DNA from: Patescibacteria group bacterium | GTDB lineage: Bacteria > Patescibacteriota > Minisyncoccia > Minisyncoccales > UBA10102 | Length of the DNA stretch: 64,000 nt | Assembly: GCA_022563395.1 (NCBI GenBank) | Contig: JADFNM010000001.1 | Location: 462,342 to 526,341 of the forward strand | Direction: 5' to 3' | Shown: positions 3,880 through 49,772 of the stretch, piece after piece | How the letters are laid out: each line of letters begins with the position of its first letter | How positions within the stretch are numbered: the first letter of the stretch is position 1 | Program-made: the position numbers and the translations under genes | Notes under the pieces: generated by a model | Database searches by the model: none | What the model saw: the letters and a program-made list of their open reading frames with translations, nothing else | What the model was told of the DNA's origin: nothing

Positions 3880-3893
3880 ATAATCCCTCCATG

Positions 3894-3965: not shown

Positions 3966-4081
3966 TTAAAACCAAACTGCTTTGGTTTTAAGGGGCATTT
4001 TCTCTGCGAGCGATCTCGCCGCAGAGGCGAGCGCGAGGCGAGAAAATGCACCGGGTCTATAATCTACCTATTCCAACTGCT
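3951..4081. repeat. Left copy of a ~130-bp inverted repeat (partner 26819-26948)
   Basis: 62 nt identical (3951-4012 vs reverse complement of 26887-26948), then a ~27-nt variable hairpin tip, then 42 nt with 1 mismatch (4040-4081 vs 26819-26860). Contains CCGGGTCTATAATCT. Confidence 0.85.
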
Positions 4082-8495: not shown

Positions 8496-9007
8496 CTCCA
8501 GTTAGTGAGATATGTTGTTACCTGAATGTCGTGTGTTCGCTGACGTTCCTCCCAGAAAACAGTGACCGTGACTTTTTTGGTTTGAGGGTCAAGAGTTCCT
8601 CCTGATTCTACAATATTGTCTGCCGCATCGCGCTCCACAAGATCCACCACAACCTCCCTTGTGAAGATTCCAAGGGTTTCCTGGCCCAAAAGAAGCTGCC
8701 ATCGTGGAGGGGTATCTCCTGAAAGTTCAAGGTGGAGTGATACTCCGGTAGTAACCTGCCCCAAACCATCGTAGTTGTTGCCAGGATCATCATCCGTCCA
8801 CCCCGTGTTGTCTCGATAGTTCTTTAGCGCCTCCACATATTCTTTAGCGAAAAAAGAGGCCTGGGTGGTTTGCTTAAACAGGGAAGCTGTTCTCAAAGAA
8901 AAGGTGCTAAAAGAAATCGAGGCTGAAATTGCCACTCCAATAATCATAATAACGACGAGCAACTCAATGATAGAGATTCCTCTACTGTAATTCCGGTGTT
9001 CCAGCAT
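8492..9007 (-). CDS. Prepilin-type pilin-like protein
   Basis: Motif G|ISIIELLVVIMIIGV. Start set at the ATG at 9007 (leader MLEHRNYSRG); the track start at 9085 is probably too long. Confidence 0.65.
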   Translation of the reverse strand: MLEHRNYSRGISIIELLVVIMIIGVAISASISFSTFSLRTASLFKQTTQASFFAKEYVEALKNYRDNTGWTDDDPGNNYDGLGQVTTGVSLHLELSGDTPPRWQLLLGQETLGIFTREVVVDLVERDAADNIVESGGTLDPQTKKVTVTVFWEERQRTHDIQVTTYLTNWR

Positions 9008-15236: not shown

Positions 15237-15551
15237 AATTTTTTACTCAAAAAATCTAAAGGTAGAAAGCAACTTATTTATTATTTCATCCTTCAGGGGA
15301 TCGCTTTTGGTGATTATATAAAAAGTCTGATTGTTTTCTGATATAAAAAATAATTTCAGTAGAAGAAACTTTTTCGTGTACTCTCCAGTCGTACCAGTTG
15401 TAACTGACTTTATCATCTATTTCACCGAGGGTAAAACTTCCCAATGCCGAGTTCCAAGTCTAAAATCTAGACCTGTTACATTATACAATGTCAAGAGCTA
15501 ACTAGAAAGCCGCCTTTCACGGGCGGCTTTCTGTTTCTAAGGCGCATATAT

Positions 15552-15587
15552 CCTAAATGAAATTAAAGCATCCTTAATTTCATTAAG
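15552..15587. repeat. Hairpin-repeat family copy (paired half-sites)
   Basis: CCTAAATGAAATTAAAG ... CCTTAATTTCATTAAG. Near identical to 21934-21970. Confidence 0.8.
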
Positions 15588-15590
15588 AAA

Positions 15591-17084
15591 CTAGCGCGCA
15601 TACTCTACAAATCTATTCTCCCGCACAAGGGTTACCTTAATTTCCCCTGGGTAGCGAAGCTCCTCCTCAATTCTTCCCGCAATGTCTTTTGTGAGTTTCT
15701 CTGCCTCAACGTCAGACACTTCTTTTGGTTTTACAAATACCCTGATCTCTCTTCCCGCCTGAATGGCATAGGACTTTTCAACACCCTCAAAAGAATTGGT
15801 AACGTTCTCCAATTCCGCAATCCTTTTCAGGTAGTTTTCCAAACTGTCTTTTCTTGCTCCGGGGCGGGCTGCTGAAATGGCGTCTGCTGCCTGTACCAAA
15901 ACCGCTTCAATGGTCTCATACGGATACTGCTCATGGTGAGACTTCATGGCATCAATCACTTCCTTTTCTGCTCCAAACTTCTCCAGCACGCGCATGCCAA
16001 TGTCAATGTGGGAACCTTCTACCTGGTGATCCAAGGCCTTTCCAATGTCATGAAACAGTCCTGCTTTCTTTGCAATAGCAATATTCATTCCAATCTCTGC
16101 TGCCAAAGCTCCTGCCAGATGAGCCACCTCTATGGAGTGCAAGAGAACGTTCTGGCCGTAAGAGGTTCTGAACTTGAGTCTTCCCAGCAGCTGTATAAGC
16201 TTTGGGTCGCTTCCCACAATTCCAACGTCAAAGACCGCAGCTTCTCCTGCTTCTTTAATCTGCTGCTCAATCTCCTGTTCTACCTTTTCCACTTCTTCTT
16301 CAACGCGCGTTGGATGAATCCTGCCATCTTTCATCAGGCGTTCTAAGGCAACCTTTGCAATGTGGCGGCGCAAGGGGTCAAATCCAGAGATGACCACGGC
16401 TTCTGGGGTTTCGTCAACAATGATCTCAACTCCGGCTGCCCGTTCCAAGGCACGAATATTCCTTCCTTCCTTCCCAATGATTTTTCCTTTCATGTCTTCG
16501 GAAGGCAAGGGAACCGTAGTGCTAGAAATCTCTTGCACCTGAGAAACCGCAGTCTTTTGAATAGCATACGCAAGAATCTCTTTTGCTCTGTTTTCAAAGC
16601 GTTCCTGGCCCTCGGCTTCAAGCTTCCGGATTCTGCCCAAGATATCTTTCTCGTAGCTTTCCTCAACACCTTTAAACAACTGTTCTTTTGCTTCTTCACG
16701 GGAGAGCTTTGCTACCTGCTCGAGCTTTTGCAAAGTCTCGTTCTTGCTTTCGGCTAACTTCTGTTCTTCCTTTTTGAGTTTTTCTACTTTGGCAAAAAAC
16801 TCCTGCTCCTTTTCTTCATACAAAGAAAGCTTGTCGCCTAAGGCGACCTCGCGCTTTAAGAGTAATTGTTCTGTTCCAAGCAGAGCTTTTCTGCGCTCGT
16901 CTTCTTGGCTTTTAGCTTTTGAAAGAAGTGCTTCTGCTTCTTTCTCTGCTTGAGCTACTTTCTTTTGCAGCCGCTGCTCTACGGTTCCGGCTTGGCGCTT
17001 TGCAAGGGATTGTCTCAACAAGTAGCCGAGAAAAATTCCCAGTGCCAAAGCCCCAAAGCCTGCCAAAAGGATTTGGGTTGTCAT
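15591..17084 (-). CDS. rny: Ribonuclease Y
   Basis: N-terminal TM, long coiled coil, KH domain (GKIIGKEGRNIRALE) and HD domain (LLHSIEVAH..HDIGKA). Confidence 0.9.
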   Translation of the reverse strand: MTTQILLAGFGALALGIFLGYLLRQSLAKRQAGTVEQRLQKKVAQAEKEAEALLSKAKSQEDERRKALLGTEQLLLKREVALGDKLSLYEEKEQEFFAKVEKLKKEEQKLAESKNETLQKLEQVAKLSREEAKEQLFKGVEESYEKDILGRIRKLEAEGQERFENRAKEILAYAIQKTAVSQVQEISSTTVPLPSEDMKGKIIGKEGRNIRALERAAGVEIIVDETPEAVVISGFDPLRRHIAKVALERLMKDGRIHPTRVEEEVEKVEQEIEQQIKEAGEAAVFDVGIVGSDPKLIQLLGRLKFRTSYGQNVLLHSIEVAHLAGALAAEIGMNIAIAKKAGLFHDIGKALDHQVEGSHIDIGMRVLEKFGAEKEVIDAMKSHHEQYPYETIEAVLVQAADAISAARPGARKDSLENYLKRIAELENVTNSFEGVEKSYAIQAGREIRVFVKPKEVSDVEAEKLTKDIAGRIEEELRYPGEIKVTLVRENRFVEYAR

Positions 17085-17191: not shown

Positions 17192-17896
17192 TCAAAAGCT
17201 CCGAAGAATCGCGGGGAGCCCCCTGGCCAAGAGGATGATGGCAAAGGCGATGACCGCCCACAGCAGGATGGTCCTGGCCCTCAAGATCTTTTCCGGCGCG
17301 CCTCCGGCCGTAAGCAAAAGGATACCCCCATACAGGATAATGATGGGGAGGACAACCACGGCAATGCCAAAGAGGAAGTTAAGAACGTTCTCCAGCAGCT
17401 CTTGTAGGGTTTCAGAAGAGATGGGGTTAAGGTCAGACGGGCTAATGATGGGAGGCCCCCCTCCACCAGGTCCCCCTCCGCCAGGCCCCCCTCCTGGCGG
17501 CGGCTGGACTACGACCGGATCCTGCTCAGTGGAAAAGGTTGCCGGCGAGGAATCGTCAATAGGACTTCCGGCCGAATTGTAGGCGGTCACCTTCCAAGTA
17601 TAGGAATCTGCGAACTCAATCCTTCCAATGGAAAGAGCCAAGAAAGGAAAGGTACACGTGCCTCCAGCACACACCCCAGAAGAGATGTTGTCTTGAGATT
17701 CCGTAAACTTGGTTGGATTCGAGTGAAGAATATCCAAAACATACTTTGTGGCAAGTGGAATCTCCTGCCATTGGAAATGGGCGTCCACCTCCACATTTGT
17801 TGCTCCGTTCGTGGGAGCAAAGGTATCAAAGGCAAGAGCGCTGACAGGAGAGAGCAGGAGTGCGAGGGAAAACGTTAGGAGAAGAACCGGTTTCAT
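17192..17896 (-). CDS. Secreted repeat-domain protein with Gly/Pro linker and C-terminal VirB2-like two-TM pilin module
   Basis: Signal peptide; one Fn3-like repeat ending YTWKVTAYN..ATFST; GGGPGGGGPGGGGPP linker. The C-terminus NVLNFLFGIAVVVLPIIILYGGILLLTAGGAPEKILRARTILLWAVIAFAIILLA resembles 26284 and 44152. Confidence 0.6.
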   Translation of the reverse strand: MKPVLLLTFSLALLLSPVSALAFDTFAPTNGATNVEVDAHFQWQEIPLATKYVLDILHSNPTKFTESQDNISSGVCAGGTCTFPFLALSIGRIEFADSYTWKVTAYNSAGSPIDDSSPATFSTEQDPVVVQPPPGGGPGGGGPGGGGPPIISPSDLNPISSETLQELLENVLNFLFGIAVVVLPIIILYGGILLLTAGGAPEKILRARTILLWAVIAFAIILLARGLPAILRSF

Positions 17897-18943: not shown

Positions 18944-19003
18944 TTCCGCATTCTACCACGAAAGAATCAAAAACGCGCAGGGTTTCCTGCGCGTCCTCTC
19001 CTC

Positions 19004-20815: not shown

Positions 20816-21026
20816 CCTTCGCTTTCTCGCTTCGCTCAAAAGCTACGGATGCCCTTCCGTAGCCTCCGGCGAAGGAGGGCTACAATTTCTATACTCTTGA
20901 TTAAAGAATGTCCGCTTTTGGCGGACACCTTCATTCACAAAGCCACTATACATCCTTTACTCCACTCTGTCAATCCCTCCTTAATAAAATTAAGGAATCG
21001 TTCTGAGCTACCACACATAACGTAGC

Positions 21027-21933: not shown

Positions 21934-22073
21934 CCTAAATGAAATTAAAGCATTCTTAACTTCATTAGGGAATCACTAATTTCAATGAATATTGCTTAAA
22001 TCTCGTTTAGGCATGAATGATTTTTCCGATTATCTCTTAAATGAAATTAAGGATTCCTTAATTTCATTTAAGA
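21934..22073. repeat. Cluster of three hairpin-family copies
   Basis: 21934-21970 is a paired half-site copy, 21995-22011 is CTTAAATCTCGTTTAGG, and 22035-22073 is a perfect 19-bp-arm palindrome TCTTAAATGAAATTAAGGA-T-TCCTTAATTTCATTTAAGA. Confidence 0.85.
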
Positions 22074-22090: not shown

Positions 22091-22119
22091 TTGACCTACA
22101 AAAGGAGGTGGGGCATACT
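22091..22119 (+). promoter_or_regulatory. Promoter TTGACC-17-CATACT, -10 ends 6 nt before the ATG at 22126
   Basis: Hexamers and spacing read directly from the sequence. Confidence 0.5.
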
Positions 22120-22125
22120 TGAGAT

Positions 22126-23079
22126 ATGAGCATTATACGGCTTGCCGTCTTCTTTCTCTTTCTCTTTTTTCCTTTCTCTCTTGCTTTCGCTCAAGAGACA
22201 AACGCCGGGTTTGTACAGGGTGTTTGGTATTCAAAAACCCCCTTTTTTGCAGGGGATACGATAAGAATATACACTGCAATTCAGAACAACTCCGGCTTTG
22301 ACATTCAAGGAACCATAGAGTTTTTGGTAAACGGCAACAATATAGGTGAATCATCGTTTTCTGCTGCCAACGGAAGAATTACAGAAGCATGGAGCGATTG
22401 GAAAGTTACACAGGGAAATTACTCCGTTGCAGCTCACATTAAAGAAGCATTTAGGGTAGAGATTGGAAAAAATCCAGAGCCAATTTCCCTGGGCACTGGT
22501 GTGCTTGGAGCAAGCGAGGTGTTTATAGATGAAGATACGGATCAAGATGGAATAGGAAATATGGAGGATGACGACGATGATAACGACGGCCTCACAGATC
22601 AAGAGGAAGAAATACTTAAAACAGACCCTCTGAATCCAGATACAGACGGAGACGGAGTAAGCGACCAAGAAGAGGTAAATTCTGGGACCAACCCATTAGT
22701 AAAAGAGAATGCTTTAATAGAAACGCAGGAAAAATCAGAAAAAGAGGAAGTGGTACCAGAAGAATCCCTTTTAAAAGAGATTACTGACACAATAACCCAA
22801 GAATACCTTCCTTCTCTCGTACAAAAAGTAGATGCTCTCGCAAAAGACACAACAGAGAAACTCAAAGAGCAAAGACAGGAACTTCAAGAAAAGAAAAATG
22901 CATTTTTAGCAGGAAAAAGCCCCGAGCCCCTTTCTGTGGCAGAACAAAGCCTGGACTTTCTTTTAGCCTCAGCCATTATTGCCCTACCACAATGGCAGAT
23001 TGGTTTGTTCCTCTTTTTTGCAATTGCAGCAGCTCTCCTGTTACGCCGTCTCGCTTCTAAAGAACAAGAAAGAGGATAA
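22126..23079 (+). CDS. Secreted protein with thrombospondin-type-3-like Asp-rich Ca-binding repeats and a C-terminal TM anchor
   Basis: Signal peptide; DTDQDGIGNMEDDDDDNDGLTDQEE..DPLNPDTDGDGVSDQEE; C-terminal hydrophobic helix. Confidence 0.6.
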   Translation: MSIIRLAVFFLFLFFPFSLAFAQETNAGFVQGVWYSKTPFFAGDTIRIYTAIQNNSGFDIQGTIEFLVNGNNIGESSFSAANGRITEAWSDWKVTQGNYSVAAHIKEAFRVEIGKNPEPISLGTGVLGASEVFIDEDTDQDGIGNMEDDDDDNDGLTDQEEEILKTDPLNPDTDGDGVSDQEEVNSGTNPLVKENALIETQEKSEKEEVVPEESLLKEITDTITQEYLPSLVQKVDALAKDTTEKLKEQRQELQEKKNAFLAGKSPEPLSVAEQSLDFLLASAIIALPQWQIGLFLFFAIAAALLLRRLASKEQERG

Positions 23080-24545: not shown

Positions 24546-24579
24546 TTTGTTTTTAATGTTTGAAACCAAGCAGTTGGTT

Positions 24580-26067
24580 TCAAACCCAATACTTTTGTTT
24601 TGACATTTCATCCCGCTTCATCTCCACATGTTCGCGCTCTTTCTTTGCCTTCTTTGAAAGATGGAGGAGTTCTGCCTCCTCAAGGGGTAAGAGTTCTTTT
24701 ACTTCCCTCTCCAGATACTTTTTGGTATTCTTCTTGGGGTCTTCCAGCACCCCCGCCAACAGCACATCTAATAGGTAGCCAACCTTGGGACCAGGGGAAA
24801 GGTTTCCCAGTTTCATTACGTCCGAACCGTTGAGTTTTAACATCTTTGCTGAAATGGGGTCCTTTTGCACCCTTTCAATAACATACCGCAAGTGGCGAAG
24901 CTTGTAGGGTTCGGCCTTTGGCACCCCAGAGCCAATGCGGTCTGCCATGCGAACTTGCATTAAATCCTCCACGTTCTCTTTCCCAATATTTCGCAGTAAC
25001 CTCCGAATGGATGATTCTGTTACTTCGTCCACGTTGTAGTAAAAGAGGTGATAACGAACCAGATTCGCTATCTTCCCTGTTTGTTTTTTGGGAAACTTAA
25101 GGCGTTCTAAAATCCGTTCTGTCATTTTAGCTCCCACCACCTCATGGCCATAGAAAGTGGAGTGTAAACCTTCTCCTCTCTTTACCTTGGGCTTGCCAAC
25201 ATCATGCAGCAAAGAAGCCAGTCTCACTTCCAAACTCCAGTTGTTTTTTGCTGCGTATTGCAAAGCCAAAAGGTTGTGTTCCCACACGGTGTAAATGTGG
25301 TGCTTGTTTTGAGCGACTCCATACCCTTGCTCAAGCTCCGGAAGAATGTATTTGAGCAGGCCTAATTCTCTGAGTTCTTCAATGCCTTCCATTGCTTTTT
25401 TGCCCATGAGAAGCTTTAAGAACTCATCCCGTATTCTTTCAGCTGAAATTTCTTTTAAAAGGCTTGCATCCTTTTGAATTGCCTTTCTGGTCTTCTCTTC
25501 TATTGCAAACCCCAGGGTTGCAACAAAGCGCACTGCTCTCATCATGCGCAAGGCATCTTCTTTAAACCGTTCCTTTGGATTTCCCACTGCGCGAATGAGT
25601 TTTGCTTTTAAGTCCCTTTGTCCTTCAAAAGGGTCGTACACCTTCAGCTCTCCTAAACGAGATTTAGGAGCTCCTAAATCTCGTTTAGGAGATAAGGCAA
25701 TGGCATTTACAGTAAAGTCGCGGCGAGAAAGATCTTCGTTAAGATTATTTGCATATTCAACCCTTCCTGGCCTCCTTCGGTCTGCATACTCAAACTCAGC
25801 CCTAAAGGTGGTCACCTCAATCTCTTTTACATGGGGGTCTTTGCTGTTGGTGAGAATAGTTACCGTAAAGAACTTATTTTCATAGAAGTTGCTGGGAAAG
25901 AGTTTTTGAATCTGCTCTGGGGTGGCACTTGTCGCAATGTCCCAGTCGTTGGGCTCTTTTTTTAAGAACAGGTCCCGAACGCATCCTCCCACCACATATG
26001 CCTCAAAACCTGCTTTCTCAAGCTTTGCTACAACCTCTTTTACCTCTTTTGGAAGAGCAGTCTTCAT
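24580..26067 (-). CDS. cca: CCA-adding tRNA nucleotidyltransferase with HD domain
   Basis: GGCVRD nucleotidyltransferase motif, RRDFTVNAIA and an HD domain (LLHDVGKP). Confidence 0.85.
   Translation of the reverse strand: MKTALPKEVKEVVAKLEKAGFEAYVVGGCVRDLFLKKEPNDWDIATSATPEQIQKLFPSNFYENKFFTVTILTNSKDPHVKEIEVTTFRAEFEYADRRRPGRVEYANNLNEDLSRRDFTVNAIALSPKRDLGAPKSRLGELKVYDPFEGQRDLKAKLIRAVGNPKERFKEDALRMMRAVRFVATLGFAIEEKTRKAIQKDASLLKEISAERIRDEFLKLLMGKKAMEGIEELRELGLLKYILPELEQGYGVAQNKHHIYTVWEHNLLALQYAAKNNWSLEVRLASLLHDVGKPKVKRGEGLHSTFYGHEVVGAKMTERILERLKFPKKQTGKIANLVRYHLFYYNVDEVTESSIRRLLRNIGKENVEDLMQVRMADRIGSGVPKAEPYKLRHLRYVIERVQKDPISAKMLKLNGSDVMKLGNLSPGPKVGYLLDVLLAGVLEDPKKNTKKYLEREVKELLPLEEAELLHLSKKAKKEREHVEMKRDEMSKQKYWV
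25650..25691. repeat. Perfect 42-bp palindrome of the hairpin family, in frame inside cca
   Basis: CTCCTAAACGAGATTTAGGAG|CTCCTAAATCTCGTTTAGGAG. Encodes SPKRDLGAPKSRLG between NAIAL and ELKVYDPFEG. Confidence 0.9.
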
Positions 26068-26099: not shown

Positions 26100-26169
26100 T
26101 CAATCGAAAGCTTCCTTAATTTCATTAAGGCCTGCCTGCGCAGACAGGAGATAGACGAGTAAATGTACT

Positions 26170-26242: not shown

Positions 26243-26283
26243 CAATCCTTAATTTCATTAAGAAAATATGGCAGAATAGAACA

Positions 26284-26676
26284 ATGAAGAAGTTTCTCCC
26301 CATAGTTCTCATCGTATTCCTGTTTTTGCCTTTGCTCATTTTTGCACAACAGGGGCTGGTTCCTTGTGGCGAAGCAGGAAACCCTTGCAAGTTGTGCCAT
26401 CTTTTTCAGCTCGTCAACAACATCTTAAATTGGGTGCTCTTTGTAATTATCCCCATTATAGCCCCTATCTTTATTGTGATTGGGGGCATCTACCTTTTGA
26501 TTGCGCGAGGCGATCCTGGGATGTTTAGTAAGGGGAAAAGCGTCTTGACTGCAACCGTTATTGGCCTTATTATCGTGTACACCGCCTATGTTCTCTTGAG
26601 CACTGTGCTCACCTCTTTGGGAGTAGCTAACTGGACCGGCCTTGGAAGCTGGTGGCAAATTGCTTGTCCGATATAA
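26284..26676 (+). CDS. VirB2/TrbC-like T4SS pilin family protein
   Basis: Signal peptide, then a GLVPCG..C..C motif, then two TM helices separated by ARGDPGMFSKGK. Confidence 0.65.
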   Translation: MKKFLPIVLIVFLFLPLLIFAQQGLVPCGEAGNPCKLCHLFQLVNNILNWVLFVIIPIIAPIFIVIGGIYLLIARGDPGMFSKGKSVLTATVIGLIIVYTAYVLLSTVLTSLGVANWTGLGSWWQIACPI

Positions 26677-26818: not shown

Positions 26819-26948
26819 AGCAGTTGGAATGGGTAGATTATAGACCCGGTGCATTTTCTCGGTGAGCCGAGCCTACTGGCAAACAACGCTCGCAGAGAAA
26901 ATGCCCCTTAAAACCAAAGCAGTTTGGTTTTAAGCCCCCATAGCTCAA
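26819..26948. repeat. Right copy of the ~130-bp inverted repeat (partner 3951-4081)
   Basis: See 3951-4081. Extends 15 nt into tRNA-Lys, whose 5' end equals that of tRNA-Arg(TCT). Confidence 0.85.
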
Positions 26949-27004: not shown

Positions 27005-27053
27005 CTATATTTATTAGTAGTATGAAAGTACCTTGAATGAAATTAAGAACGTG

Positions 27054-27081
27054 TTGATTTTTTGGCGATTCGTGATACAGT
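27054..27081 (+). promoter_or_regulatory. Promoter TTGATT-16-TACAGT, -10 ends 6 nt before the rpsO ATG
   Basis: Read directly from the sequence. Confidence 0.45.
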
Positions 27082-27087
27082 GCAGCT

Positions 27088-27354
27088 ATGCTCACTACAA
27101 AAGACAAGGAAAAACTGATTGAAAAATACAAGATTCATACCACAGACTCAGGGTCCCCCGAGGTTCAGATTGCCTTAATTACCGAGGAAATCAAGCGGCT
27201 GCTCTCACACTTAAAAAAGCATCCCAAGGACTTTCATTCAAAAAGGGGTCTTTTGAAAACCGTGGCAAAAAGGAGAACTCTCCTGGCATATCTCAAGCAG
27301 GAGAGCGTGAGACGCTACAACAGCCTTATTAAAAAGATTGGATTGAAAAAGTAA
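27088..27354 (+). CDS. rpsO: 30S ribosomal protein S15
   Basis: 88 aa; [33 protein letters not shown]. Confidence 0.95.
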
Positions 27355-30026: not shown

Positions 30027-31220
30027 ATGGACGCACCAAAACAGCCAGCATCCCAGCCAAATCAACAACCCCCTGACGAGAAGTTGGAGTTTTTAAAAAG
30101 AGAAGAGGTTCGCACCATGGCAAAGGACATTGCCAAGGTCAGAGAAGTGGAGGCGAAAAAAGAGCAAGAGCGCATAGCAAACTTTAAAAAAGAAGCGAAA
30201 CTGCCAAAGAAGCCTCAAGTGGTACTCTCCCAACACCCCGAAGGAAAACTCAGGACGATTTCTAACGGCTCCGCAGGAACTCCGCCTGCCCTGGGTACTT
30301 TCCAACGGCTCCGCGGCCTGCCTGCGCAGGCAGGGAGCTCCGCCGAAAGTGCCCGTCCAAGTCAAGCAGTTGACTCGGACCCCGGGGGAACAACGCAGCT
30401 GACTCCAGCCCCAGAACAGCCTTTGATGCAAAGACGTCATCCCAGGCGCTCCGAAAAGCTGTTCATTCGCCTGGTGCTAGGTGGGATTATCTTGTTTCTG
30501 CTCTTTAATGCGGTGGCCTTTGGGTTCTGGTACTTTTTTCAGAAAGAGGCGGAGCCAAGGCTCGAACCAACGAGTGAACAGGTTGAAGAGCCCACTCTGG
30601 CGGAACCAACACCCCCACCTCCCCCCCAGCCAGAGGCTGGTCCGTCTCAGGCGGAACCCCCAATATCCTTTTTTGAAGCGCCAGAGCAAGAACTCTTAAT
30701 TGAGTCCCCAGGAGAGCTCCTTTCCAAACTTCAGGACTTTCTTGGTGGAGTCCCAGCTCTCGGGTTCACCAATCTTGCGGTAAAAACACAAGGGGATATT
30801 CTTTCTCTTAAAGACTTCCTGCAGGGAGCGGAGATCACAATACCCCAAGAACTCAAAGGAAAGCTCGCAGAAAACCTCATGCTCTTTTCCTACGTTGCAG
30901 AAGACAAAAAGCGCCTTGGATTTGTTGCAAAGCTTAAAGAAACAGAGGGTGTATCAGGACTTTTGCAGTCATGGGAGCAAAGCAACATGGAGCAGGACCT
31001 GGCTTCTTTCTTTGACATTATTGAAAGAAAGGGGTCAGCCTACACTCCCTTCTTTCGTTCCGCCACTTACCAGGGAGTGCAAGTTCGCTTTCAGACCTTT
31101 TCTGTGACAGACTTTGGGATTGTGTATGGTGTTCTCGATAACAAATTACTACTCACCAGCTCATTTGAGAGTTTCCAGAGGGCGGTTGACCAACTTAAGG
31201 CATCAAGACCAGAACCTTAG
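30027..31220 (+). CDS. Hypothetical membrane protein with a Pro-rich region
   Basis: 397-aa ORF with one central TM helix, a low-complexity N-terminal half and a PPPPQPE tract. Confidence 0.5.
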   Translation: MDAPKQPASQPNQQPPDEKLEFLKREEVRTMAKDIAKVREVEAKKEQERIANFKKEAKLPKKPQVVLSQHPEGKLRTISNGSAGTPPALGTFQRLRGLPAQAGSSAESARPSQAVDSDPGGTTQLTPAPEQPLMQRRHPRRSEKLFIRLVLGGIILFLLFNAVAFGFWYFFQKEAEPRLEPTSEQVEEPTLAEPTPPPPPQPEAGPSQAEPPISFFEAPEQELLIESPGELLSKLQDFLGGVPALGFTNLAVKTQGDILSLKDFLQGAEITIPQELKGKLAENLMLFSYVAEDKKRLGFVAKLKETEGVSGLLQSWEQSNMEQDLASFFDIIERKGSAYTPFFRSATYQGVQVRFQTFSVTDFGIVYGVLDNKLLLTSSFESFQRAVDQLKASRPEP

Positions 31221-32723: not shown

Positions 32724-33548
32724 ATGGATTTATACTCAATAAAAACTATAAAAGAGCTTCTAAGAGCATACAATACAATCCCAAAGGAACGCCTTGGTCA
32801 GAACTTCTTGTTGGAAAAAAGGGTGGCTTCAAAGATGCTCAAGGCAACAGAGATCTCTCAAAAAGACATCGTTCTTGAGATAGGGCCGGGGATTGGGACT
32901 TTAACCCAAGAACTCGCTCAAAAAGCAAAACGAGTCATTGCCGTAGAAAAAGACCCTACCATGGTAAAGATTCTCAGGGAAACCACCGGAGCCCTCCCCA
33001 ATATAGAGATTATCCAAGCTGACATCCTCAAGCTAAACTTAGCTAGACTAAGTTACTCAAAGGTGGTGGCAAACCTTCCTTATTATATTACCTCGCCTGT
33101 AATACGCATGTTCCTTGAAGCAAAGAACAAGCCAGAGCTCATGGTGTTTATGGTGCAAAAAGAGGTTGCGCAAAGGATTTGTGCCAAGCCCCCAGACATG
33201 AATCTGCTGGCTGTGTCCGTACAGTTTTACGCTGAACCAAAAATCGTTTCCTTTGTGCGCAAGGGTGCTTTTTGGCCTCAGCCTAAGGTGGATTCTGCTA
33301 TTGTAAAGATTGTGCCAAAAAATGAGTTACCTTTTGTGGATCCTGGTCTTTTCTTTCGTATTGTGAAAGCGGGCTTTAAACAACCAAGAAAGCAGCTAGG
33401 AAACAACCTCGCGCAAGGACTCAAACTTTCAAGAGAAGAAATAGAAACTTGGCTTAACCAAGGGGATATTCAACCAACGCAGAGGGCCGAAACCCTTTCA
33501 CTTACAGACTGGGTAGTGCTCGCAAAATCTCTTCCAAAGTCTACCTAA
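32724..33548 (+). CDS. rsmA: 16S rRNA (adenine1518/1519-N6)-dimethyltransferase
   Basis: LGQNFL and VLEIGPGIGTLT SAM motifs. Start at the ATG at 32724. Confidence 0.9.
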   Translation: MDLYSIKTIKELLRAYNTIPKERLGQNFLLEKRVASKMLKATEISQKDIVLEIGPGIGTLTQELAQKAKRVIAVEKDPTMVKILRETTGALPNIEIIQADILKLNLARLSYSKVVANLPYYITSPVIRMFLEAKNKPELMVFMVQKEVAQRICAKPPDMNLLAVSVQFYAEPKIVSFVRKGAFWPQPKVDSAIVKIVPKNELPFVDPGLFFRIVKAGFKQPRKQLGNNLAQGLKLSREEIETWLNQGDIQPTQRAETLSLTDWVVLAKSLPKST

Positions 33549-33585
33549 ACGAGATTTAGGTGTGGATAACTAAATCTCGTTTAGG
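33544..33585. repeat. Hairpin-family copy (paired, CCTAAACGAGATTTAGG .. CTAAATCTCGTTTAGG)
   Basis: Same sequence as the in-frame palindrome in cca, with a 9-nt spacer. Overlaps the rsmA stop. Confidence 0.85.
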
Positions 33586-33615
33586 CAGAACGGGAGAATC
33601 TGGTACAATAAAACA

Positions 33616-36249
33616 ATGCGATTTATTGTAATTGGTTTGGTATTGAGCGTTCTTGTTTTTGTTCCTCAATTTGCTGTTGCAAACACAGCTCCGGTGGCAA
33701 ATGCAAATGGGCCCTATGAAGAGACGATAGGAAAACCTATTATATTTGATGGCTCAGCTTCCTCTGACGCAGACGGGGATTTCTTGACGTCGTATAGCTG
33801 GGACTTTGGGGATGAAGCTACAGGAACTGGCAGATTTTCTTTTCATGTATACGCTGCCCCCGGAATCTATACAGTAACTCTTGTAGTACATGACGGCACA
33901 GAAAACTCGGCCCCTGCAACAACAGAAGCAGTAATAGGGTTGGCTCCGCCAAGCAACCCGGTCTTGCCTAAAGAGGATGCGGGCTCGGTGGCGTTCCCCT
34001 TAATTCTTGAATGGGAAGAGGTAGAAAATGCCAAGTCGTATTTCTATAACATTTTCCCCATGGAAGAGGCCTTTTCGGTCTCAGATACAAAAAGCGGACC
34101 CCTGCCAAACGAGGTTTTGGAGTTCCTCTCCCCAAAAATCTATGAGGAGTACAAAAGGCAGTGCAAGCAAGAAAAAGGAGGGGCATGCTCAGATGAAGAC
34201 ATCCAGCGGGTTATTGTAAGGGAGCAAACCTACCCTTGGAGGGTAAAGGCGTGCACCGTTCCAAATCCTTCCGCCCCAGACGACGCCTCTTGCGGGCCCT
34301 ACAGCGATCCACCTTGGAGTTTTGTATATATCCCCCAACCCCCAGAAAACTTAGAAGAACCGAGCCCAGGTTCTTCGGGCGTTACCCTGCCCGTAAAGCT
34401 GGGGTGGACAGGAGTTGAGAATGTAGGTTCCTATGTTATTGATGTGCGGCTTGACATTGGCTGCAGCGTTATAGACAACATTGTAGGGTTCTTTACTGGA
34501 GGAGATTGCGACCCTCTGAACTTCTTTATAGAATCGGTCCTTGACTGGTTTGGGTTTGGAGAAAACTATGACCCATCCTGCCCTTGGAATTTGTGGAATA
34601 AGAACACGCAAGAATGCGTGCCCCTGCCCATCCTCCCTCGACTCAACAATGAAGACCCTCCAGTAGAAGAGTTGACCCCTCAATACCAAGATGCGGAACA
34701 AAAAATCTTGAAGATAAAAATTCCGGGGGTAGGTGATGTAGGAGATACGGTAGAAGGCCAATGCGTGTTTCCCAAAAATGCATCCTATAAAATCACCATC
34801 GCAAGTTGTCTGGATAAACAGGCACAAATCTGTGGGGAGTGGAGCGATGAATGGAAGTTTTCAACCGGAGCCAACAGAGAAGACGGTTCTTCATACGAAT
34901 TGCCGACTCCCACCCATATTGAACCAGAGTACGAACTGGGCAAACCCTTGCCTGTTGTAGGCAAAAACGCCTTGCTCAAATGGGAGGCGCAGAATTGTGT
35001 GCATTACGTGCGCCTCTTCGTTTCTCCTGTTGGGGGCAGTCCCATCATTAAAGAAATCTTGCCAAACTTTGAAAGCGCAGACCTTTCCCGAGAACAGTTT
35101 AAAAAGCTTTGGGACGAACCTTCCGACTTAGACAAAGAGTATGTATGGAATCTAGAGCCTTGCTGGCGAGTAGTGGATGATATATTTTGTGAAGGAGTGT
35201 TTAGCAACGAGTGGTATTTTAAAACCATTGGAGAACCACCTCTCCTTGAAACTCCAGAGAATGGCGAGTTTATGAAAGTTCCAAGTCAACTTTCTTGGAA
35301 AGGCATTGGCGGAGTAGAATCCTACAAAATAGAGATTGCTTCTGATGAAGAATTTGAAAACATTGTAAAGGAAGAAAGTGTGATACTGGGGAACACCTTT
35401 GTTGTTCTTTTTGAAGATGGTTTTCGACCAGACAACCAGTATTGGTGGCATGTGGCATCCTGCGCAGATACAGAGGGGGAAGTATGTGGAAACAACTGGA
35501 GCGAAGAAAGAAGCTTTCGTACTCATCCCTTACTTCCTCCTACCAATCCAAACCCGGGGGACGAAGGAGAAATGTTAATCCCAGGAAGCATCTCGTGGCA
35601 GCCAGATCCCGGAGCTTCCTATTATCAATACCAAATCTCGTATGCCTTACTCGCTCCAGACGAAACGCTTGAGGGGTGCGCAGAAAAAGAAGGGACGCAA
35701 ATTATTCCAAGACCAGGGGATACTCCTCCTATCACAAACCAAACTTCCTTTTATTTGAGTGAGCGCTGTACCGGAGAATACAATTGGAAAGTTCAATCTT
35801 GTGCGGATAAAGATTGCGCTATAAACAGTGACGATACCGAGGATTGGACAGCAACCCCGCTCTGGAGCTTTACTGCACAAGAACTCCCCGTGGAAGAACG
35901 CTTTGGTTTGGTCCCTTGCGGAAGAAACTCCAACAACCCCAAAACTCCGTACAATGAAAAAGAAGCATGTGGGGTAAAACACGTGGGCTTTCTTCTGCAA
36001 AACATCTTGGACTTTGTGCTATGGAAACTGTCTCTCATTATTCTTGCCGTCTTGGCGGTGTTTGTGGCAGCATCAACTTACTTCTCTTTTGGAAGGCCTG
36101 ATGTCATAACGCGTATTCGCTCTGTGTTTCGCTCTTACTTCTATGGTGTTCTCATTCTTCTCTTTGCCTGGCTCATTGTGAATATCATCATGGCGGTGCT
36201 TGGCTTTAACGTTAACTTCTTTGGCAATTGGTATGAAATACCATTTTAA
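33616..36249 (+). CDS. Giant secreted PKD/repeat protein ending in a VirB2-like pilin module
   Basis: Signal peptide; PKD signature (SWDFGDE..YTVTLVVHDG); at least 5 Cys/Trp repeats ending W.F(K/R/S)T. C-terminus is GLVPCG plus two TM helices. TGgTACAAT -10 lies 6 nt before the ATG. Confidence 0.65.
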   Translation: MRFIVIGLVLSVLVFVPQFAVANTAPVANANGPYEETIGKPIIFDGSASSDADGDFLTSYSWDFGDEATGTGRFSFHVYAAPGIYTVTLVVHDGTENSAPATTEAVIGLAPPSNPVLPKEDAGSVAFPLILEWEEVENAKSYFYNIFPMEEAFSVSDTKSGPLPNEVLEFLSPKIYEEYKRQCKQEKGGACSDEDIQRVIVREQTYPWRVKACTVPNPSAPDDASCGPYSDPPWSFVYIPQPPENLEEPSPGSSGVTLPVKLGWTGVENVGSYVIDVRLDIGCSVIDNIVGFFTGGDCDPLNFFIESVLDWFGFGENYDPSCPWNLWNKNTQECVPLPILPRLNNEDPPVEELTPQYQDAEQKILKIKIPGVGDVGDTVEGQCVFPKNASYKITIASCLDKQAQICGEWSDEWKFSTGANREDGSSYELPTPTHIEPEYELGKPLPVVGKNALLKWEAQNCVHYVRLFVSPVGGSPIIKEILPNFESADLSREQFKKLWDEPSDLDKEYVWNLEPCWRVVDDIFCEGVFSNEWYFKTIGEPPLLETPENGEFMKVPSQLSWKGIGGVESYKIEIASDEEFENIVKEESVILGNTFVVLFEDGFRPDNQYWWHVASCADTEGEVCGNNWSEERSFRTHPLLPPTNPNPGDEGEMLIPGSISWQPDPGASYYQYQISYALLAPDETLEGCAEKEGTQIIPRPGDTPPITNQTSFYLSERCTGEYNWKVQSCADKDCAINSDDTEDWTATPLWSFTAQELPVEERFGLVPCGRNSNNPKTPYNEKEACGVKHVGFLLQNILDFVLWKLSLIILAVLAVFVAASTYFSFGRPDVITRIRSVFRSYFYGVLILLFAWLIVNIIMAVLGFNVNFFGNWYEIPF

Positions 36250-36255
36250 ACACAT

Positions 36256-36272
36256 CCTTAATTTCATTTAGG
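36256..36272. repeat. Hairpin-family copy CCTTAATTTCATTTAGG
   Basis: Lies 51-67 nt upstream of the ATG at 36323. Confidence 0.8.
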
Positions 36273-36322
36273 AACTATGGCTTTCCATTTTCACCCTCTC
36301 TGGGATATAATATAATAACCAT

Positions 36323-39300
36323 ATGTACAAACGAGTTGTAGATTTCATGCGCGCTCTACCCCCGCACAAAGGAATGCTCTTTGGCATAACATTTTTTATA
36401 GTACTTTTTTCTATTGTTCCTCTGCGGTTTGCTGAGGCAAACATCTTTTCTGACATCTTTGGGCTAATCAGCAACCTTTGGATTGGCTGGGCGTTTGGAA
36501 TACCGCTTGCCATAATCACCGCCCTGCTGGTCATTGGCGCGCTTTTGGCTGTCTGGCTGTCTGCAGTCCTGGTAACCATCATCAAGTTCTTTATCATATC
36601 CTCTCTTAGCGTACCGATTCTCCCCGGATCTGGGATTGAGGTGGTAACTGTGGGATGGGAGTTCTCACGAGACTTGGTGAATCTTGTCTTTATCCTTATT
36701 CTTGTTTTTATTGGGCTTGCAACTATTTTGCGTATTCAAAATTACCAAGCGCAGCGAGCCCTTCCTCTTTTAATTGTCGTTGCACTTCTTGTGAACTTTA
36801 GCGGTGTGTTTGTTGCTTTCATCGTAGATATTGCCAACCTTGTCACCAATGCCTTTGTGGCAAAACTGGGTGGATTTCATATGGCAGTCGCGGGATCTAA
36901 GGCGATTCTCGAATCTTTAGCAACGGGCCTCGTCGGCATTGTCACCAACCTTACAGACTTTGGCGCCATTCTAGTCCCCCCGATAACGGCAGCAATTTAT
37001 CTTATTTTCTACCTTGTATTTGCGATTATAATGTTTTTGGTCGCCCTTCTCATTATTGTGCGTGTGGGCATTTTGTGGGCACTTACGATTTTAGCACCCC
37101 TTGCATTTGCATCTTACATTCTGCCTGCCACCAGAGGCTTGTGGAATCAGTGGCTCAAACAGCTTATCCAGTGGTCCATTATTGGCATACCCATAGCATT
37201 TTTCCTCTGGCTTGCCCAAACCGCTGCAGCCGGTGCTACAAACATTAAAAATGCGTTCATGCTGGGGATTAGACCTGAGTGCTATAACCCTGCCTCCGAA
37301 GAATTCTTGAATGGGGCAGGATGCCTTAATGGGGCGGATCCTGGACTGATGAATGTTATCGCAAACCTTATGGGTCCTATGGTTGCTCTTCTCTTGGTTG
37401 TAATGGGAATTATAGTGGCGATGCAGTTTGCTCCTGCTGGAGCAAACCAGGTTATTAACCTTGGAAAGAAATGGGGGCCGAAGGGCGGAGCTGCTCTTGG
37501 AACTTTTGCATGGAGAAGAATGGGGGCTGGTATAGAAAAGTTTGGGGGGAATATCAGGAAGCGGGCACAAGGCACATGGGATGTTGAAAAAGACACGCTT
37601 ACTAGGGGCGAAAAAGTTCTTGGGGCAATAGGAAGAACAACACGCCTTGAAAAAATTAACTTGGGCCGCTTTGGAAAAAGGGGGGCAGAGATTTTTGGCA
37701 CGGTTATTGAGACTGGGAGTAGAAAAACAACTGCCCAAATGCACAAACGGGATGACGCTGAAATAGCTAAAGCATTAAAAGCAGGCACAAACCAAGATTT
37801 CAATGACAACTTCGGCGATATGACAATCGCTGCAAAAAGAAAAGATTGGAATACCTATCTTGGGAAGCTGGTTGCTACCATAGATAAAAATGGAGACACC
37901 GATGAAGTCAGAAAGGCAGCAAACTCTGGAAAACTGAGCTGGAAAGATATTGATGCAGCCCTACAGCATGCAGAGCACCATGGGAATCCTGATTACTTCC
38001 GTCCTATTATAAAGGGGCTACGCGGTAAAATGCAGGATGGCACAAAAACGGAAGATGGCACCTTGCTACATCCACAGGAATCAAACCTTGCAACTATTGA
38101 TGAAAAAACGAAAGTTCGAGACATTACAGAAAAAGTTGTAGACCTAGAAAGTATTATGGGCACACCCGAAGGAGAGGAGGTACTAAACGGATATTTCTTA
38201 AATGCTGATTCTAACATTACAACGGCAGTGATGCGACATCCGAACAGAGCGGTGCGGGAATGGGCAGTGCAACATGCAGAATCGCTGGGCGCAGACTGGT
38301 TTCTTGAGAACAACAGGCGAGATACACTTGAAACGATTGTCAGCTCGGGAGGAAGAAGCATGGGCGTGCCTGTGTTTGGCGGACTAGCTCGCGACGGGAT
38401 TCGCCGAATGGCGGTTGAAAGAACAGGGCGTATGAGCGACGAGGAGCTTGAACAAAAAATTGAGAGGACGAATGATCAAATAGGGGGATTGAGGGTGCGC
38501 GAAGAAGAAGAACGGGCGGCTGGAAGAAAACCAGGAACAATCAAAAATCAGAGAGGGCAGCTTGAGAAAGAACGTACGGAAGCCCAGGAGGCGCTCCGCC
38601 TGCGCAGACTTTCTCCAGAGGATTTGCAACAAGAAAGAGTGGATCGCCAGTCCGAGATTGGCAACATAGACCAACAATTTGCCGCCAAAACGATAGACGG
38701 GGATGAATACTACCGTCAAAAAGCACAGCCACAGCGAAACCTTGAGCGCACGGAACAAGAGCTAGAAAGGAGGGGAGTTGCTACGCCCGAAAAAGAACCG
38801 GTCTCAGGGGAAAGAGCAAAACTCCAAGAATCTACCGGCCCCATAGGAAAGACTTACCAGCAATGGACGAAACAAATACAGCGAGCGAGAGAGCTCGGGG
38901 CTTCGCTTCCAGAACTTCATGCGCGTGTTATGGGTCTAAGAGACGAAAAGGAGCGTGATCGCGCATCAAATATGCTTATAGAGCTTGGAACTAAGGCCGA
39001 AGCGGAACAAGAAGTTGCACAGGAATTCATTGCTTCAATTCTTACAGTATCAAAAGAATCTGAAGGTCTTTCAGTAAAAGAACAAAGAGAGGCGATAAAC
39101 CCCCTCAAGCTTGACGCCGAACGAAGTTCCGCAATGAACGAAGTAAAAAACACGCTGAAAAAGCTTCGAGCAAACTTAGAGAAGGCAGAAAGCAAACAAC
39201 GCGATGAAGAACCCCCAGCTCCTCCCGGAGAAACCCCTGGAGGCCCCATTCCGCCGCCTTCTCCGCCACCACCACCGCCTAACACAGGAAGGGCCCCAGT

Positions 39301-39589
39301 ACCTCCTCCGTCTCCTCCGCCCCCAGGGGGGAGTCCTGCTGTGCCTCGTCCCCCACAACCACCAACAAGAGGAGGTGGGGAAGCTAAAATTACCGTAGAA
39401 CGAAAACAGGGGACGCCAGCATGGCTGAGAAAAGGTCTTGCGGACTTGGAGGATGGACAGGCAGTACCAACGATGATATCAAAGCCTCTTCAAAAATACC
39501 TGCACAGCAGAGGAATCACCAAGGAAGAAATGGGTCGCATGAACCCACAACAAGCTTGGGAAAGGGTTGATGAATTATCAAAGGAATGA
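36323..39589 (+). CDS. Polytopic membrane protein (VirB6/TrbL-like by topology and context) with a ~700-aa charged, coiled-coil and polyproline C-terminal extension
   Basis: About 8-9 TM helices in the first ~380 aa, then Glu/Arg/Lys-rich helices and PPPSPPPPPPNTGRAPVPPPSPPPPGG. TATAAT lies 6 nt before the ATG. Confidence 0.5.
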   Translation: MYKRVVDFMRALPPHKGMLFGITFFIVLFSIVPLRFAEANIFSDIFGLISNLWIGWAFGIPLAIITALLVIGALLAVWLSAVLVTIIKFFIISSLSVPILPGSGIEVVTVGWEFSRDLVNLVFILILVFIGLATILRIQNYQAQRALPLLIVVALLVNFSGVFVAFIVDIANLVTNAFVAKLGGFHMAVAGSKAILESLATGLVGIVTNLTDFGAILVPPITAAIYLIFYLVFAIIMFLVALLIIVRVGILWALTILAPLAFASYILPATRGLWNQWLKQLIQWSIIGIPIAFFLWLAQTAAAGATNIKNAFMLGIRPECYNPASEEFLNGAGCLNGADPGLMNVIANLMGPMVALLLVVMGIIVAMQFAPAGANQVINLGKKWGPKGGAALGTFAWRRMGAGIEKFGGNIRKRAQGTWDVEKDTLTRGEKVLGAIGRTTRLEKINLGRFGKRGAEIFGTVIETGSRKTTAQMHKRDDAEIAKALKAGTNQDFNDNFGDMTIAAKRKDWNTYLGKLVATIDKNGDTDEVRKAANSGKLSWKDIDAALQHAEHHGNPDYFRPIIKGLRGKMQDGTKTEDGTLLHPQESNLATIDEKTKVRDITEKVVDLESIMGTPEGEEVLNGYFLNADSNITTAVMRHPNRAVREWAVQHAESLGADWFLENNRRDTLETIVSSGGRSMGVPVFGGLARDGIRRMAVERTGRMSDEELEQKIERTNDQIGGLRVREEEERAAGRKPGTIKNQRGQLEKERTEAQEALRLRRLSPEDLQQERVDRQSEIGNIDQQFAAKTIDGDEYYRQKAQPQRNLERTEQELERRGVATPEKEPVSGERAKLQESTGPIGKTYQQWTKQIQRARELGASLPELHARVMGLRDEKERDRASNMLIELGTKAEAEQEVAQEFIASILTVSKESEGLSVKEQREAINPLKLDAERSSAMNEVKNTLKKLRANLEKAESKQRDEEPPAPPGETPGGPIPPPSPPPPPPNTGRAPVPPPSPPPPGGSPAVPRPPQPPTRGGGEAKITVERKQGTPAWLRKGLADLEDGQAVPTMISKPLQKYLHSRGITKEEMGRMNPQQAWERVDELSKE

Positions 39590-39622
39590 AGAAAAGAATG
39601 GAAAGTACCTTAAAATAAGAAA

Positions 39623-39673
39623 AAGGAGAGAAGGTACTCATGACATTGTGGTGTCATTTTCCCCTCTCTCCTT
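39623..39673. terminator. Long hairpin between convergent genes; T-tract on the minus-strand side
   Basis: AAGGAGAGAAGG..ATGACA-ttgtgg-TGTCAT..CCCTCTCTCCTT. On the minus strand it is followed by TTTTTCTTATTTT. Confidence 0.5.
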
Positions 39674-39703
39674 GCTTGAGCGAGGTGCCCCTAGCTTTGT
39701 TTG

Positions 39704-40265: not shown

Positions 40266-40274
40266 GCGCCTATC

Positions 40275-41141: not shown

Positions 41142-41143
41142 AT

Positions 41144-43615: not shown

Positions 43616-43636
43616 TGCCTTAACTAAATTATGGAT

Positions 43637-43655
43637 TCCTTAATCTCGTTAAGGA
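43637..43655. repeat. Hairpin-family copy TCCTTAATCTCGTTAAGGA
   Basis: Lies 20-38 nt upstream of the ATG at 43675. Confidence 0.8.
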
Positions 43656-49663: not shown

Positions 49664-49772
49664 GGAAGAACAAGTTTTCCGAACTCTGAATATTTTCAAC
49701 TCACCCAAAAGCCCAAAAGCTTGAAGGCCGTCCCACCCGGGGAGTCGTTACTGCTTAAACGAAATTTAAGCA

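Follow-up and report, generated by a model that had tools for sequence, protein, structure and literature searches.

The DNA analyzed here is a stretch of 64,000 nucleotides (nt), hereafter the window, from the genome of a Patescibacteria group bacterium (GenBank assembly GCA_022563395.1, contig JADFNM010000001.1, positions 462,342 to 526,341 of the forward strand). Window region 21934-22073 carries a perfect palindrome of 39 nt as well as one degenerate doublet and one singlet, all of them derived from one 17-nt palindromic unit, and copies of the same unit recur throughout a large part of the window. An earlier reading of the letters alone (the original prediction) had described these copies as a genome-specific hairpin family clustered at promoter-proximal intergenic sites, and had proposed that they served one regulator as operators, acted as hairpins in RNA processing or stability, or were a selfish repeat resembling repetitive extragenic palindromic (REP) sequences or MITEs (miniature transposable elements with inverted repeats).

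The readable sequence comprised the window and an 8.6-kb extension from another assembly of the same genome, 72.6 kb in all or about 11% of the 671-kb genome, and statements about the genome as a whole are limited to that share. The genome is 92% coding, the non-coding share of the sequence analyzed being 7.8%. Relatives of its CCA-adding enzyme belong to Paceibacteria and Wildermuthbacteria, and the host is a Paceibacteria-like member of the Patescibacteria. Comparisons were made with loci of close relatives, defined by a CCA-enzyme identity of 68-88% (L001, L003, L089, L090, L091, L140, L141 and L142), and with a background set of 1.15 Mb of distant Paceibacteria loci (CCA-enzyme identity ≤60%). 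The window encodes a type IV pilus gene cluster, a cluster resembling a type IV secretion system (T4SS), a helix-turn-helix (HTH) protein and response regulators. It also holds a replication-origin neighborhood (44534-49251), in which jag, yidC and rnpA on the - strand are followed by dnaA and dnaN on the + strand; from the presence of dnaA-dnaN at 46.6-49.3 kb, oriC presumably lies inside the window. A GC-skew minimum at ~25 kb was ruled out as the origin, since the skew tracks gene strand and dnaA-dnaN sit elsewhere. The repeat copies and associated palindromes of the window are the following, a singlet being one unit and a doublet two units in inverted orientation.

15552..15588: inverted doublet of two 17-nt units and a 3-nt spacer, 2 nt past the RNase Y stop (- strand); hairpin of -22.9 kcal/mol
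20979..20995: singlet CCTTAATAAAATTAAGG, 31 nt past the stop of a bestrophin-like gene, with the nusA -35 element following 5 nt downstream
21934..21970: degenerate doublet in a divergent spacer; fold of -10 kcal/mol
21995..22011: singlet CTTAAATCTCGTTTAGG, likewise in that divergent spacer
22035..22073: doublet forming a perfect palindrome of 39 nt; a TSP3-repeat protein gene (start 22126) begins 53 nt downstream; 100% complementary, -21.9 kcal/mol, z -7.1
25649..25692: perfect 44-nt palindrome, a doublet with centre GGAGCTCC, in frame in the CCA-adding enzyme gene 24580..26067 (- strand)
26114..26130: singlet CCTTAATTTCATTAAGG, lying between tRNA-Arg(TCG) and the start of the CCA gene; orthologous copies at L001 9938 and L141 6676
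26131..26148: palindrome of a second family, CCTGCCTGCGCAGACAGG, immediately adjacent to the unit at 26114
26247..26263: singlet, 3 nt past the tRNA-Arg 3' end and 20 nt ahead of a T4SS-pilin start
27032..27048: degenerate singlet, 26 nt past tRNA-Lys and 5 nt upstream of the rpsO -35 (TTGATT); kept in L001 and L003
30317..30334: second-family palindrome CCTGCCTGCGCAGGCAGG, in frame in gene 30027..31220, encoding LPAQAG
33037..33053: dialect unit ACTTAGCTAGACTAAGT, in frame in ksgA, within the variable loop that follows DILKL
33544..33585: type II doublet with its units 8 nt apart, the first of them containing the ksgA stop TAA; -25.9 kcal/mol
33561..33569: perfect DnaA box TTATCCACA (- strand), in the loop of that doublet; the sole perfect box in the window
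36256..36272: singlet, 6 nt past the stop of the PKD-adhesin gene and 50 nt ahead of a gene that the original prediction labelled VirB6-like
43618..43654: doublet, 2 nt past the stop of a TraG/VirB4-like ATPase gene and 20 nt ahead of the start at 43675
49754..49770: singlet in a convergent spacer, 2 nt past the stop of a penicillin-binding protein (PBP) gene (- strand); -9.4 kcal/mol on the - strand

The 13 copies of the original prediction were all recovered at the positions it gave, one of them in a shifted register (27032-27048, not 27031-27047), and three that it had missed were added (21954-21970, 43618-43634 and, inside ksgA, 33037-33053). The pairing of units in inverted orientation was borne out at 15552, 21934, 22036, 25652, 33544 and 43618, two of the pairs being perfect palindromes of 39 and 44 nt, and tRNA-Arg(TCG) is indeed flanked by a copy on either side.

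The building block is a near-palindrome of 17 nt, CCTWAA-YGARA-TTWAGG (consensus CCTWAAYGARATTWAGG), with a dyad symmetry of 7+3+7. Its central 5 nt are conserved and asymmetric, reading YGARA (TGAAA or CGAGA) on one strand and TYTCR (TTTCA or TCTCG) on the other, and an outer flank of ~9 nt, ARMTATGSG, is common to the copies, so that a full doublet reaches ~55 nt. Exact matches to CCTWAA-N5-TTWAGG numbered 7 in the 64-kb window against 0.06 expected, and matches with at most one mismatch 18 against 1.07; none of 100 shuffled sequences reached either count. With a looser dialect pattern, MCTWAR-N5-YTWAGK, 9 exact matches were found where 0.35 were expected. A position weight matrix built from the copies detected 29 units in the 72.6 kb, against 0.75 predicted from the rate in the 1.15-Mb background, a comparison that is supportive and not independent, being partly circular because the matrix was trained on the same copies. 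Within the window all copies lie at 15-50 kb, near dnaA (46.6 kb), and clustering around the origin was therefore considered; no evidence for it was seen, as the extension holds five further clusters.

Close relatives carry the family too, at shared and at other sites and in altered dialects (CCTAAACCAGGTTTAGG in L001, CCTAAGCTNAGCTTAGG in L089, ACTTAA-N5-TTAAGT in L091), so that lineage-specific is the proper term where the original prediction had genome-specific. No copies were found in distant relatives (CCA-enzyme identity ≤60%) among the matches listed in a scan of a genome collection. A scan of a metagenome collection gave only relatives of ≤66% identity, which are without the unit though they have other palindromes, and on viral contigs the two commonest 17-mers gave single matches per contig only, as by chance. 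In a search against Rfam, tRNAs alone reached the gathering score in the window and no family covered the units, and we found no paper describing such repeats in the Patescibacteria phylum. Continuation beyond the window and positional bias, on which the original prediction had staked its proposal, were both observed: the family runs on in the extension and in the relatives, and its placement is biased.

This bias is primarily directed toward gene ends. About 23 units fall in the non-coding sequence of the 72.6 kb and 6 in coding sequence. The intergenic units form 15 clusters, 11 of which border a gene 3' end in their spacer, and at 8 of these 11 sites (RNase Y, tRNA-Arg, ksgA, PKD adhesin, TraG/VirB4-like ATPase, PBP, ruvA and one more in the extension) the repeat lies within 6 nt of the stop codon or tRNA end or overlaps it (permutation within spacers, p=0.0026). 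The adjacency persists where room is ample, the distance being 2 nt in spacers of 354 and 109 nt, and in several cases the stop codon is part of the unit itself (CC-TAA) or of its flank (CATAG/CTAG). Occupied spacers amount to 9 of 39 codirectional, 2 of 5 convergent and 2 of 5 divergent ones; in addition to the copy at 49754, a convergent spacer in the extension carries one at 71475. The RNase Y doublet, which conserved flanks widen to ~15541-15599, comes after the stop and before a conserved canonical terminator, and is missing in L001 and L089.

Proximity to promoters, as claimed by the original prediction, holds for some copies, the association with the stop codon of the upstream gene being the tighter one. 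Distances from a unit to the downstream start or -35 range from overlapping to >300 nt. Centre-to-start distances of 19, 29, 29, 39, 49 and 59 nt seemed periodic, and helical phasing was rejected by a Rayleigh test on independent sites (p=0.17-0.6). Units are not confined to promoter regions and have no fixed or phased distance to starts, which is not the arrangement of regulon operators. At both nusA (- strand; promoter TTGACA-17-TATAGT) and rpsO, a unit lies exactly 5 nt upstream of the -35, and the nusA site is kept in L001, as a doublet, and in L003. Starts that look leaderless do lie 20-60 nt downstream of several copies, a relation that the original prediction had noted with a range of 20-90 nt: the -10 ends 6 nt before the ATG in TGGTACAAT-N6-ATG (33616), TGATACAGT-N6-ATG (rpsO) and CATACT-N6-ATG (22126), in regions 33582-33618, 27060-27090 and 22091-22128, of which the first two are conserved in relatives. 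A flank reading AGGA-N3-ATG was rejected as a ribosome-binding site and start, the spacing being too short and the open reading frames (ORFs) only ~12 codons long.

Units also occur in frame within three genes, those for the CCA-adding enzyme, KsgA and, just outside the window, a Mur ligase, which contains one doublet and one singlet. The 44-nt palindrome of the CCA-adding enzyme gene encodes SPKRDLGAPKSRLG, and its codon position could be followed across 9 genomes: L140 has no unit there, L001 and L141 have one, L142 has one unit directly followed by the second-family palindrome CCTGCCTGCGCAGGCAGG, and in the window, L089 and L090 the site is filled by perfect doublets that share their centre (GGAGCTCC) and differ in their arms. 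In a structure model, this insert is predicted to map to the tip of a beta-hairpin with pLDDT (the model's per-residue confidence) <50. The ksgA loop after DILKL is hypervariable and is filled in every lineage by units, doublets or other palindromes. Five of the six coding units (CCA enzyme and Mur ligase) share their frame relative to the CCT codon, which is the only stop-free frame of a CCTAAA-type unit (CCT AAA ... TTA GG, giving PKxxLG), and the sixth, in ksgA, belongs to another dialect and another register and is still in frame. Relative to homologues, the in-frame copies in the CCA-enzyme and ksgA loops are insertions.

Doublets measure 37-55 nt and consist of two inverted units separated by 3-4 nt or, in type II, by the 8-nt spacer TGTGGATA; their hairpins have stems of 17-22 bp. 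The composite unit-TGTGGATA-unit was found at the ksgA stop in the window, L001 and L091, in the internal loop of ksgA in L141, L142 and L003 (in L003 with another palindrome nested in the spacer) and at two further L091 sites. Recurrence of this asymmetric spacer at non-orthologous sites indicates that whole doublets were copied as entities. The ksgA-stop doublet is inverted between the window and L001/L091, and singlet and doublet states interchange at the same orthologous site, for example in the CCA loop and at nusA. In nine type II doublets, 12 of 17 arm pairs had changed on both sides while 90% of the cells remained paired (0 of 500 shuffles), and the core columns covaried under doublet-level pairing only. 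G-U accounted for 3 of the 18 non-Watson-Crick cells, the proportion expected by chance. Arms that diverge yet stay complementary, with no excess of G-U, point to palindromy maintained at the level of DNA.

These data bear on the proposal that the repeats are selected RNA hairpins, acting as 3' stabilizers, as terminators devoid of a U-tract or as intercistronic RNase III processing sites. The adjacency of 8 of 11 sites to a stop codon or tRNA 3' end agrees with it, as do the folds of the doublets, mostly -21 to -36 kcal/mol with z of -4 to -8 (-10 kcal/mol for the degenerate doublet at 21934), and the pyrimidine-rich UYUCR core that 7 of 8 singlets show in the sense of transcription, a weak trend (two-sided p ~0.07). 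REP and Correia elements are moreover known to have such effects (PMC10969869). Against it, singlets fold to only -2.4 to -9.4 kcal/mol and 2 of the 3 tested did no better than shuffles, G-U pairs are not enriched, Rfam returned no match, and the copies in divergent promoter spacers and in coding sequence have no obvious RNA role. The elements do not resemble intrinsic terminators either, as their stems are AT-rich and no T-run follows them, whereas canonical GC-rich terminators with T-runs are found at 53244-53276 (bidirectional), at 18969-18998 and directly downstream of the RNase Y doublet; the organism thus uses ordinary intrinsic terminators. We consider selected RNA hairpins quite an unlikely explanation.

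A second alternative takes the units as binding sites (operator, activator or UP-like) of one dimeric DNA-binding or nucleoid protein, with doublets accommodating a dimer of dimers and the coding and convergent copies arising as by-products. The 7+3+7 dyad would suit such a dimer, and so would symmetry at the DNA level and singlets that are poor hairpins and conserve sequence, not merely structure. The constant 5-nt distance to the nusA and rpsO -35, kept at nusA in L001 and L003, points the same way, the window encodes candidate regulators in its HTH protein and response regulators, and dialects with core changes common to several sites would be expected of a co-evolving protein. Yet the best-scoring, perfect copies lie within coding sequence (CCA enzyme, 25649-25692; also ksgA and Mur ligase), others occupy convergent spacers that have no promoter (49754, 71475), and the distances to starts and -35 boxes vary without helical phasing. 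The flanking genes (RNase Y, ksgA, PBP, ruvA, pilins, tRNAs) have no common function, clusters occur about once per 5 kb, far more densely than a local regulon would require, and nesting and singlet/doublet turnover are not properties of operators. Binding sites of a single protein are therefore unlikely, and among the alternatives this is the one we would turn to first.

The 8-nt spacer of type II doublets, together with the next base, is a perfect DnaA box. The box TTATCCACA was located at 33561-33569 of the window, at 2615 in L001, at 2675, 15038 and 16011 in L091 and at ~175-183 in L141. Its register relative to the unit is constant (TGTGGATAA directly adjoining CTWAA), the box either forming the loop of a type II doublet or abutting a single unit, and 5 of the 6 perfect DnaA boxes in the window genome and close relatives abut a unit in this same register. 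Two ~70-nt composites in L091 (15030-15100 and 16003-16075), which follow ClpP and AbiEii genes, combine a DnaA box with a unit and a hairpin of the canonical terminator type (CCTCTCTTCAC..GAGAGGTTTTTT). One-mismatch DnaA boxes were noted near dnaA itself, at 46389, 46452, 48031 and 48086.

We also weighed whether the units could be DNA uptake or recognition sequences, analogous to the DNA uptake sequences (DUS) of Neisseria and the uptake signal sequences (USS) of Pasteurellaceae, gathered by biased uptake and recombination. DUS and USS are known for inverted pairs downstream of genes and for coding copies in permissive loops and frames, and the distribution seen here is similar in its high density, lineage dialects, inverted pairs just downstream of genes and coding copies in permissive loops in one reading frame; core changes are shared among orthologous sites within a genome, and a type IV pilus cluster lies in the window. 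The likeness is one of distribution only. The unit is palindromic and known uptake sequences are not, two core variants and variable W positions coexist in one genome, the intergenic bias is extreme (~50-fold), and the 50-64 kb segment has spacers yet no copies. Furthermore, whole composite doublets with their asymmetric spacer were copied, which indicates insertion and not a drive by point mutation, and we found no paper tying uptake sequences to the Patescibacteria phylum. We regard an uptake-sequence origin of this kind as highly improbable.

A broader version of this idea would make the units a lineage-specific recognition 'word' of a co-evolving trans-acting protein, foremost a signal for DNA uptake or recombination; in a related form, type II doublets would disperse DnaA boxes around the origin and thereby titrate or position DnaA. 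Patescibacteria are thought to live on imported DNA. A recognition word would explain the joint change of cores across sites, the dialects, and the inverted pairs behind genes and in permissive loops. We nevertheless hold it to be very unlikely.

The reading that we favor, with a probability of roughly 60%, is that the copies form a lineage-specific family of miniature palindromic repeats, REP/REPIN-like in general character and, in its coding insertions, like the Rickettsia palindromic elements (RPE). Among the options offered by the original prediction, the REP/MITE-like selfish repeat thus fits best, operators of a single regulator being disfavored by the coding and convergent copies and the lack of phasing, and RNA hairpins by the weak singlets and the absence of G-U enrichment. 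The family is classed as a variant and not a member of the known systems because its copies are not strictly extragenic, the GTAG tetranucleotide is missing, the length falls short of 100-150 bp, and no RAYT (REP-associated tyrosine transposase) was seen in the small part of the genome that was read. Such repeats would spread by copy-and-paste through a putative mobilizing enzyme, and copies would survive only where the compact genome tolerates them, that is directly after or overlapping stop codons (the unit supplying TAA or TAG), close upstream of promoters, and, in the stop-free frame, at surface-loop tips. Hairpin-templated strand switching could keep the arms identical and convert singlets to doublets. 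Strong hairpins at mRNA 3' ends, AT-rich DNA upstream of some -35 boxes and dispersed DnaA boxes are likely side effects, and some copies may have been co-opted, for instance as AT-rich upstream DNA at nusA and rpsO.

Several observations weigh against this interpretation. Neither a RAYT (Y1) nor any other obvious mobilizing gene appeared among the Pfam matches in the 72.6 kb (~11% of the genome) and the relatives' loci. There is no clear target-site duplication, the flanks at RNase Y (TATGCGCGCTAG / TATGCGCCTTAG) being readable as direct or as inverted repeats, no recent insertion polymorphism was seen between strains, and the loci compared yielded no clean pairing of an empty with a filled site. 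The sites at the ksgA stop, in the CCA loop and upstream of nusA and rpsO are orthologous across 68-88% protein identity; this persistence is a sign of long residence, not of recent mobility, and a functional site would show it likewise. Finally, core changes are common to several orthologous sites of one genome, CGAGA occurring in the window genome at the ksgA stop, in the Mur ligase and in the CCA gene, and CCAGG in L001 in the CCA gene as well as at the ksgA stop. Such sharing is not what simple transposition would predict, and it suggests gene conversion or a co-evolving trans-acting factor. It is these old orthologous sites and shared core changes that keep the binding-site and recognition-word explanations alive at low probability. 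A TIGR-Tas guide-RNA array, a candidate prompted by the literature, was rejected, the copies being dispersed and not in a regular tandem, and the genes flanking 21.9-22.1 kb matching only the Bestrophin-like and TSP3-repeat Pfam domains.

REPINs are doublets, with singlets as their remnants, that insert into or next to existing copies (PMC3116915). With REPs, BIMEs and REPINs the present family has in common short imperfect palindromes of ~20-40 nt that are highly repeated and strongly intergenic, the occurrence of singlets and of inverted hairpin doublets, the doublet being the copied entity here too, a location just past stops or between convergent genes, the placement of new copies into or next to old ones, and lineage-specific sequence. 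In BIME-1/RIP elements an IHF site lies between two inverted REPs, and the SMAG elements of Stenotrophomonas are grouped with REPs; type II doublets hold a DnaA box as BIME-1/RIP elements hold their IHF site. The family differs from REPs in having no 5' GTAG/GTGG tetranucleotide, its flank being ARMTATGSG and its unit beginning with CCT, and in its in-frame copies in the CCA enzyme, ksgA and Mur ligase, REPs being extragenic by definition. Unlike in REPINs, the spacers are of 3-8 nt and not tens of nt, and the readable 72 kb of this roughly 0.67-Mb Patescibacteria genome revealed no RAYT gene.

RPEs insert in frame, and Correia elements can invert, carry promoters and be cleaved by RNase III (PMC10969869). 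As with RPEs, palindromic repeats are found here in a reduced genome, in frame in unrelated housekeeping genes as well as in spacers (PMC10969869), and the added peptide is compatible with the fold, the insert of the CCA enzyme being placed at a disordered beta-hairpin tip. RPEs are ~100-150 bp long, compared with 17-55 nt here, and belong to another phylum; no sequence similarity is apparent, only one reading frame of the present A-type unit is open, and most copies are intergenic. Correia, NEMIS and MITE elements are similar in their palindromic body, in effect terminal inverted repeats alone, and in their proximity to genes. The inversion of the ksgA-stop doublet between the window and L001/L091 parallels that of Correia elements, which can also carry protein-binding sites and promoters and whose hairpins are RNase III substrates; at 100-200 bp, with a TA target duplication, they differ from the present units, which are far below the size of any defined MITE. 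Cyanobacterial small dispersed repeats (SDRs) are likewise very small mobile repeats with conserved ends and variable interiors, nested in each other and forming hairpins, with another sequence and in another host. Elhai et al., whose work PMC3116915 cites for SDRs, are said to have described them in 2008 as ~21-27 nt long, mobile and often nested. We know of no description of coding-frame insertions, DnaA-box loops or stop-codon adjacency for SDRs.

Nesting is not restricted to the 17-nt unit. The second palindrome family, CCTGCCTGCGCAGGCAGG, adjoins a first-family unit at two non-orthologous places, in the window spacer (26131-26148) and in the L142 CCA gene (8724-8741), and gives LPAQAG in frame at two positions in the CCA enzymes of relatives (proteins P0007 and P0013); other small palindromes insert beside or into first-family units. 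Palindromic insertion may be a general habit of the group. Two unrelated perfect palindromes were also noted, one of 44 nt in frame in the ksgA loop of L001 (3118-3161), the other, GCCCCGCCCGCCAGCTGGCGGGCGGGGC, present twice per locus in L128, L132, L133 and L134 (e.g. L133 8061-8088 and 9626-9653).

Patescibacterial genomes are among the smallest and most compact of all bacteria and are usually called streamlined. In this compact genome, palindromes of an active-looking family fill about a tenth of the intergenic DNA, alter the C-terminal ends and the surface loops of enzymes that are essential (CCA-adding enzyme, KsgA, Mur ligase) and nest in each other, which argues that selfish or self-propagating DNA can persist under extreme reduction, as in Rickettsia. 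Three lineages have perfect palindromes of 40-46 nt at one shared codon position, each with arms of its own, which constitutes a natural experiment on the upkeep of symmetry. The DnaA box of one doublet subtype may, if functional, tie the repeats to replication control. In practical terms, the repeats provide a marker for strain and lineage typing of uncultured genomes and call for caution with gene callers, as they supply stop codons and inserts.

Some further features of the window were recorded. Several genes for T4SS-pilins (PF18895) and a PrgI and TraG/VirB4-like cluster, which includes large membrane proteins that have no assignment, lie within ~13 kb of the origin (26284-26676, 17192-17896, 33616-44532). 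A fork leaving the dnaA-dnaN origin would meet the genes at 26-44.5 kb head-on. At the left end of the window (1-3965), the gene of a large serine recombinase (2314-3867) extends into the end of tRNA-His. Upstream of it lie an HTH protein gene and unassigned ORFs, and the contig of a related assembly terminates ~600 nt ahead of the window start; this segment, which carries no 17-nt units, is probably an integrated element. Lastly, 28-nt hairpins at 3965-3992, 26907-26934 and 24558-24585 (CTTAAAACCAAA-N4-TTTGGTTTTAAG, with the variant GTTTGAAACCAA-N4-TTGGTTTCAAAC) coincide with, or lie shortly upstream of, the 5' ends of tRNA-Arg(TCT), tRNA-Lys and tRNA-Pro, and may be tRNA leader or processing structures.

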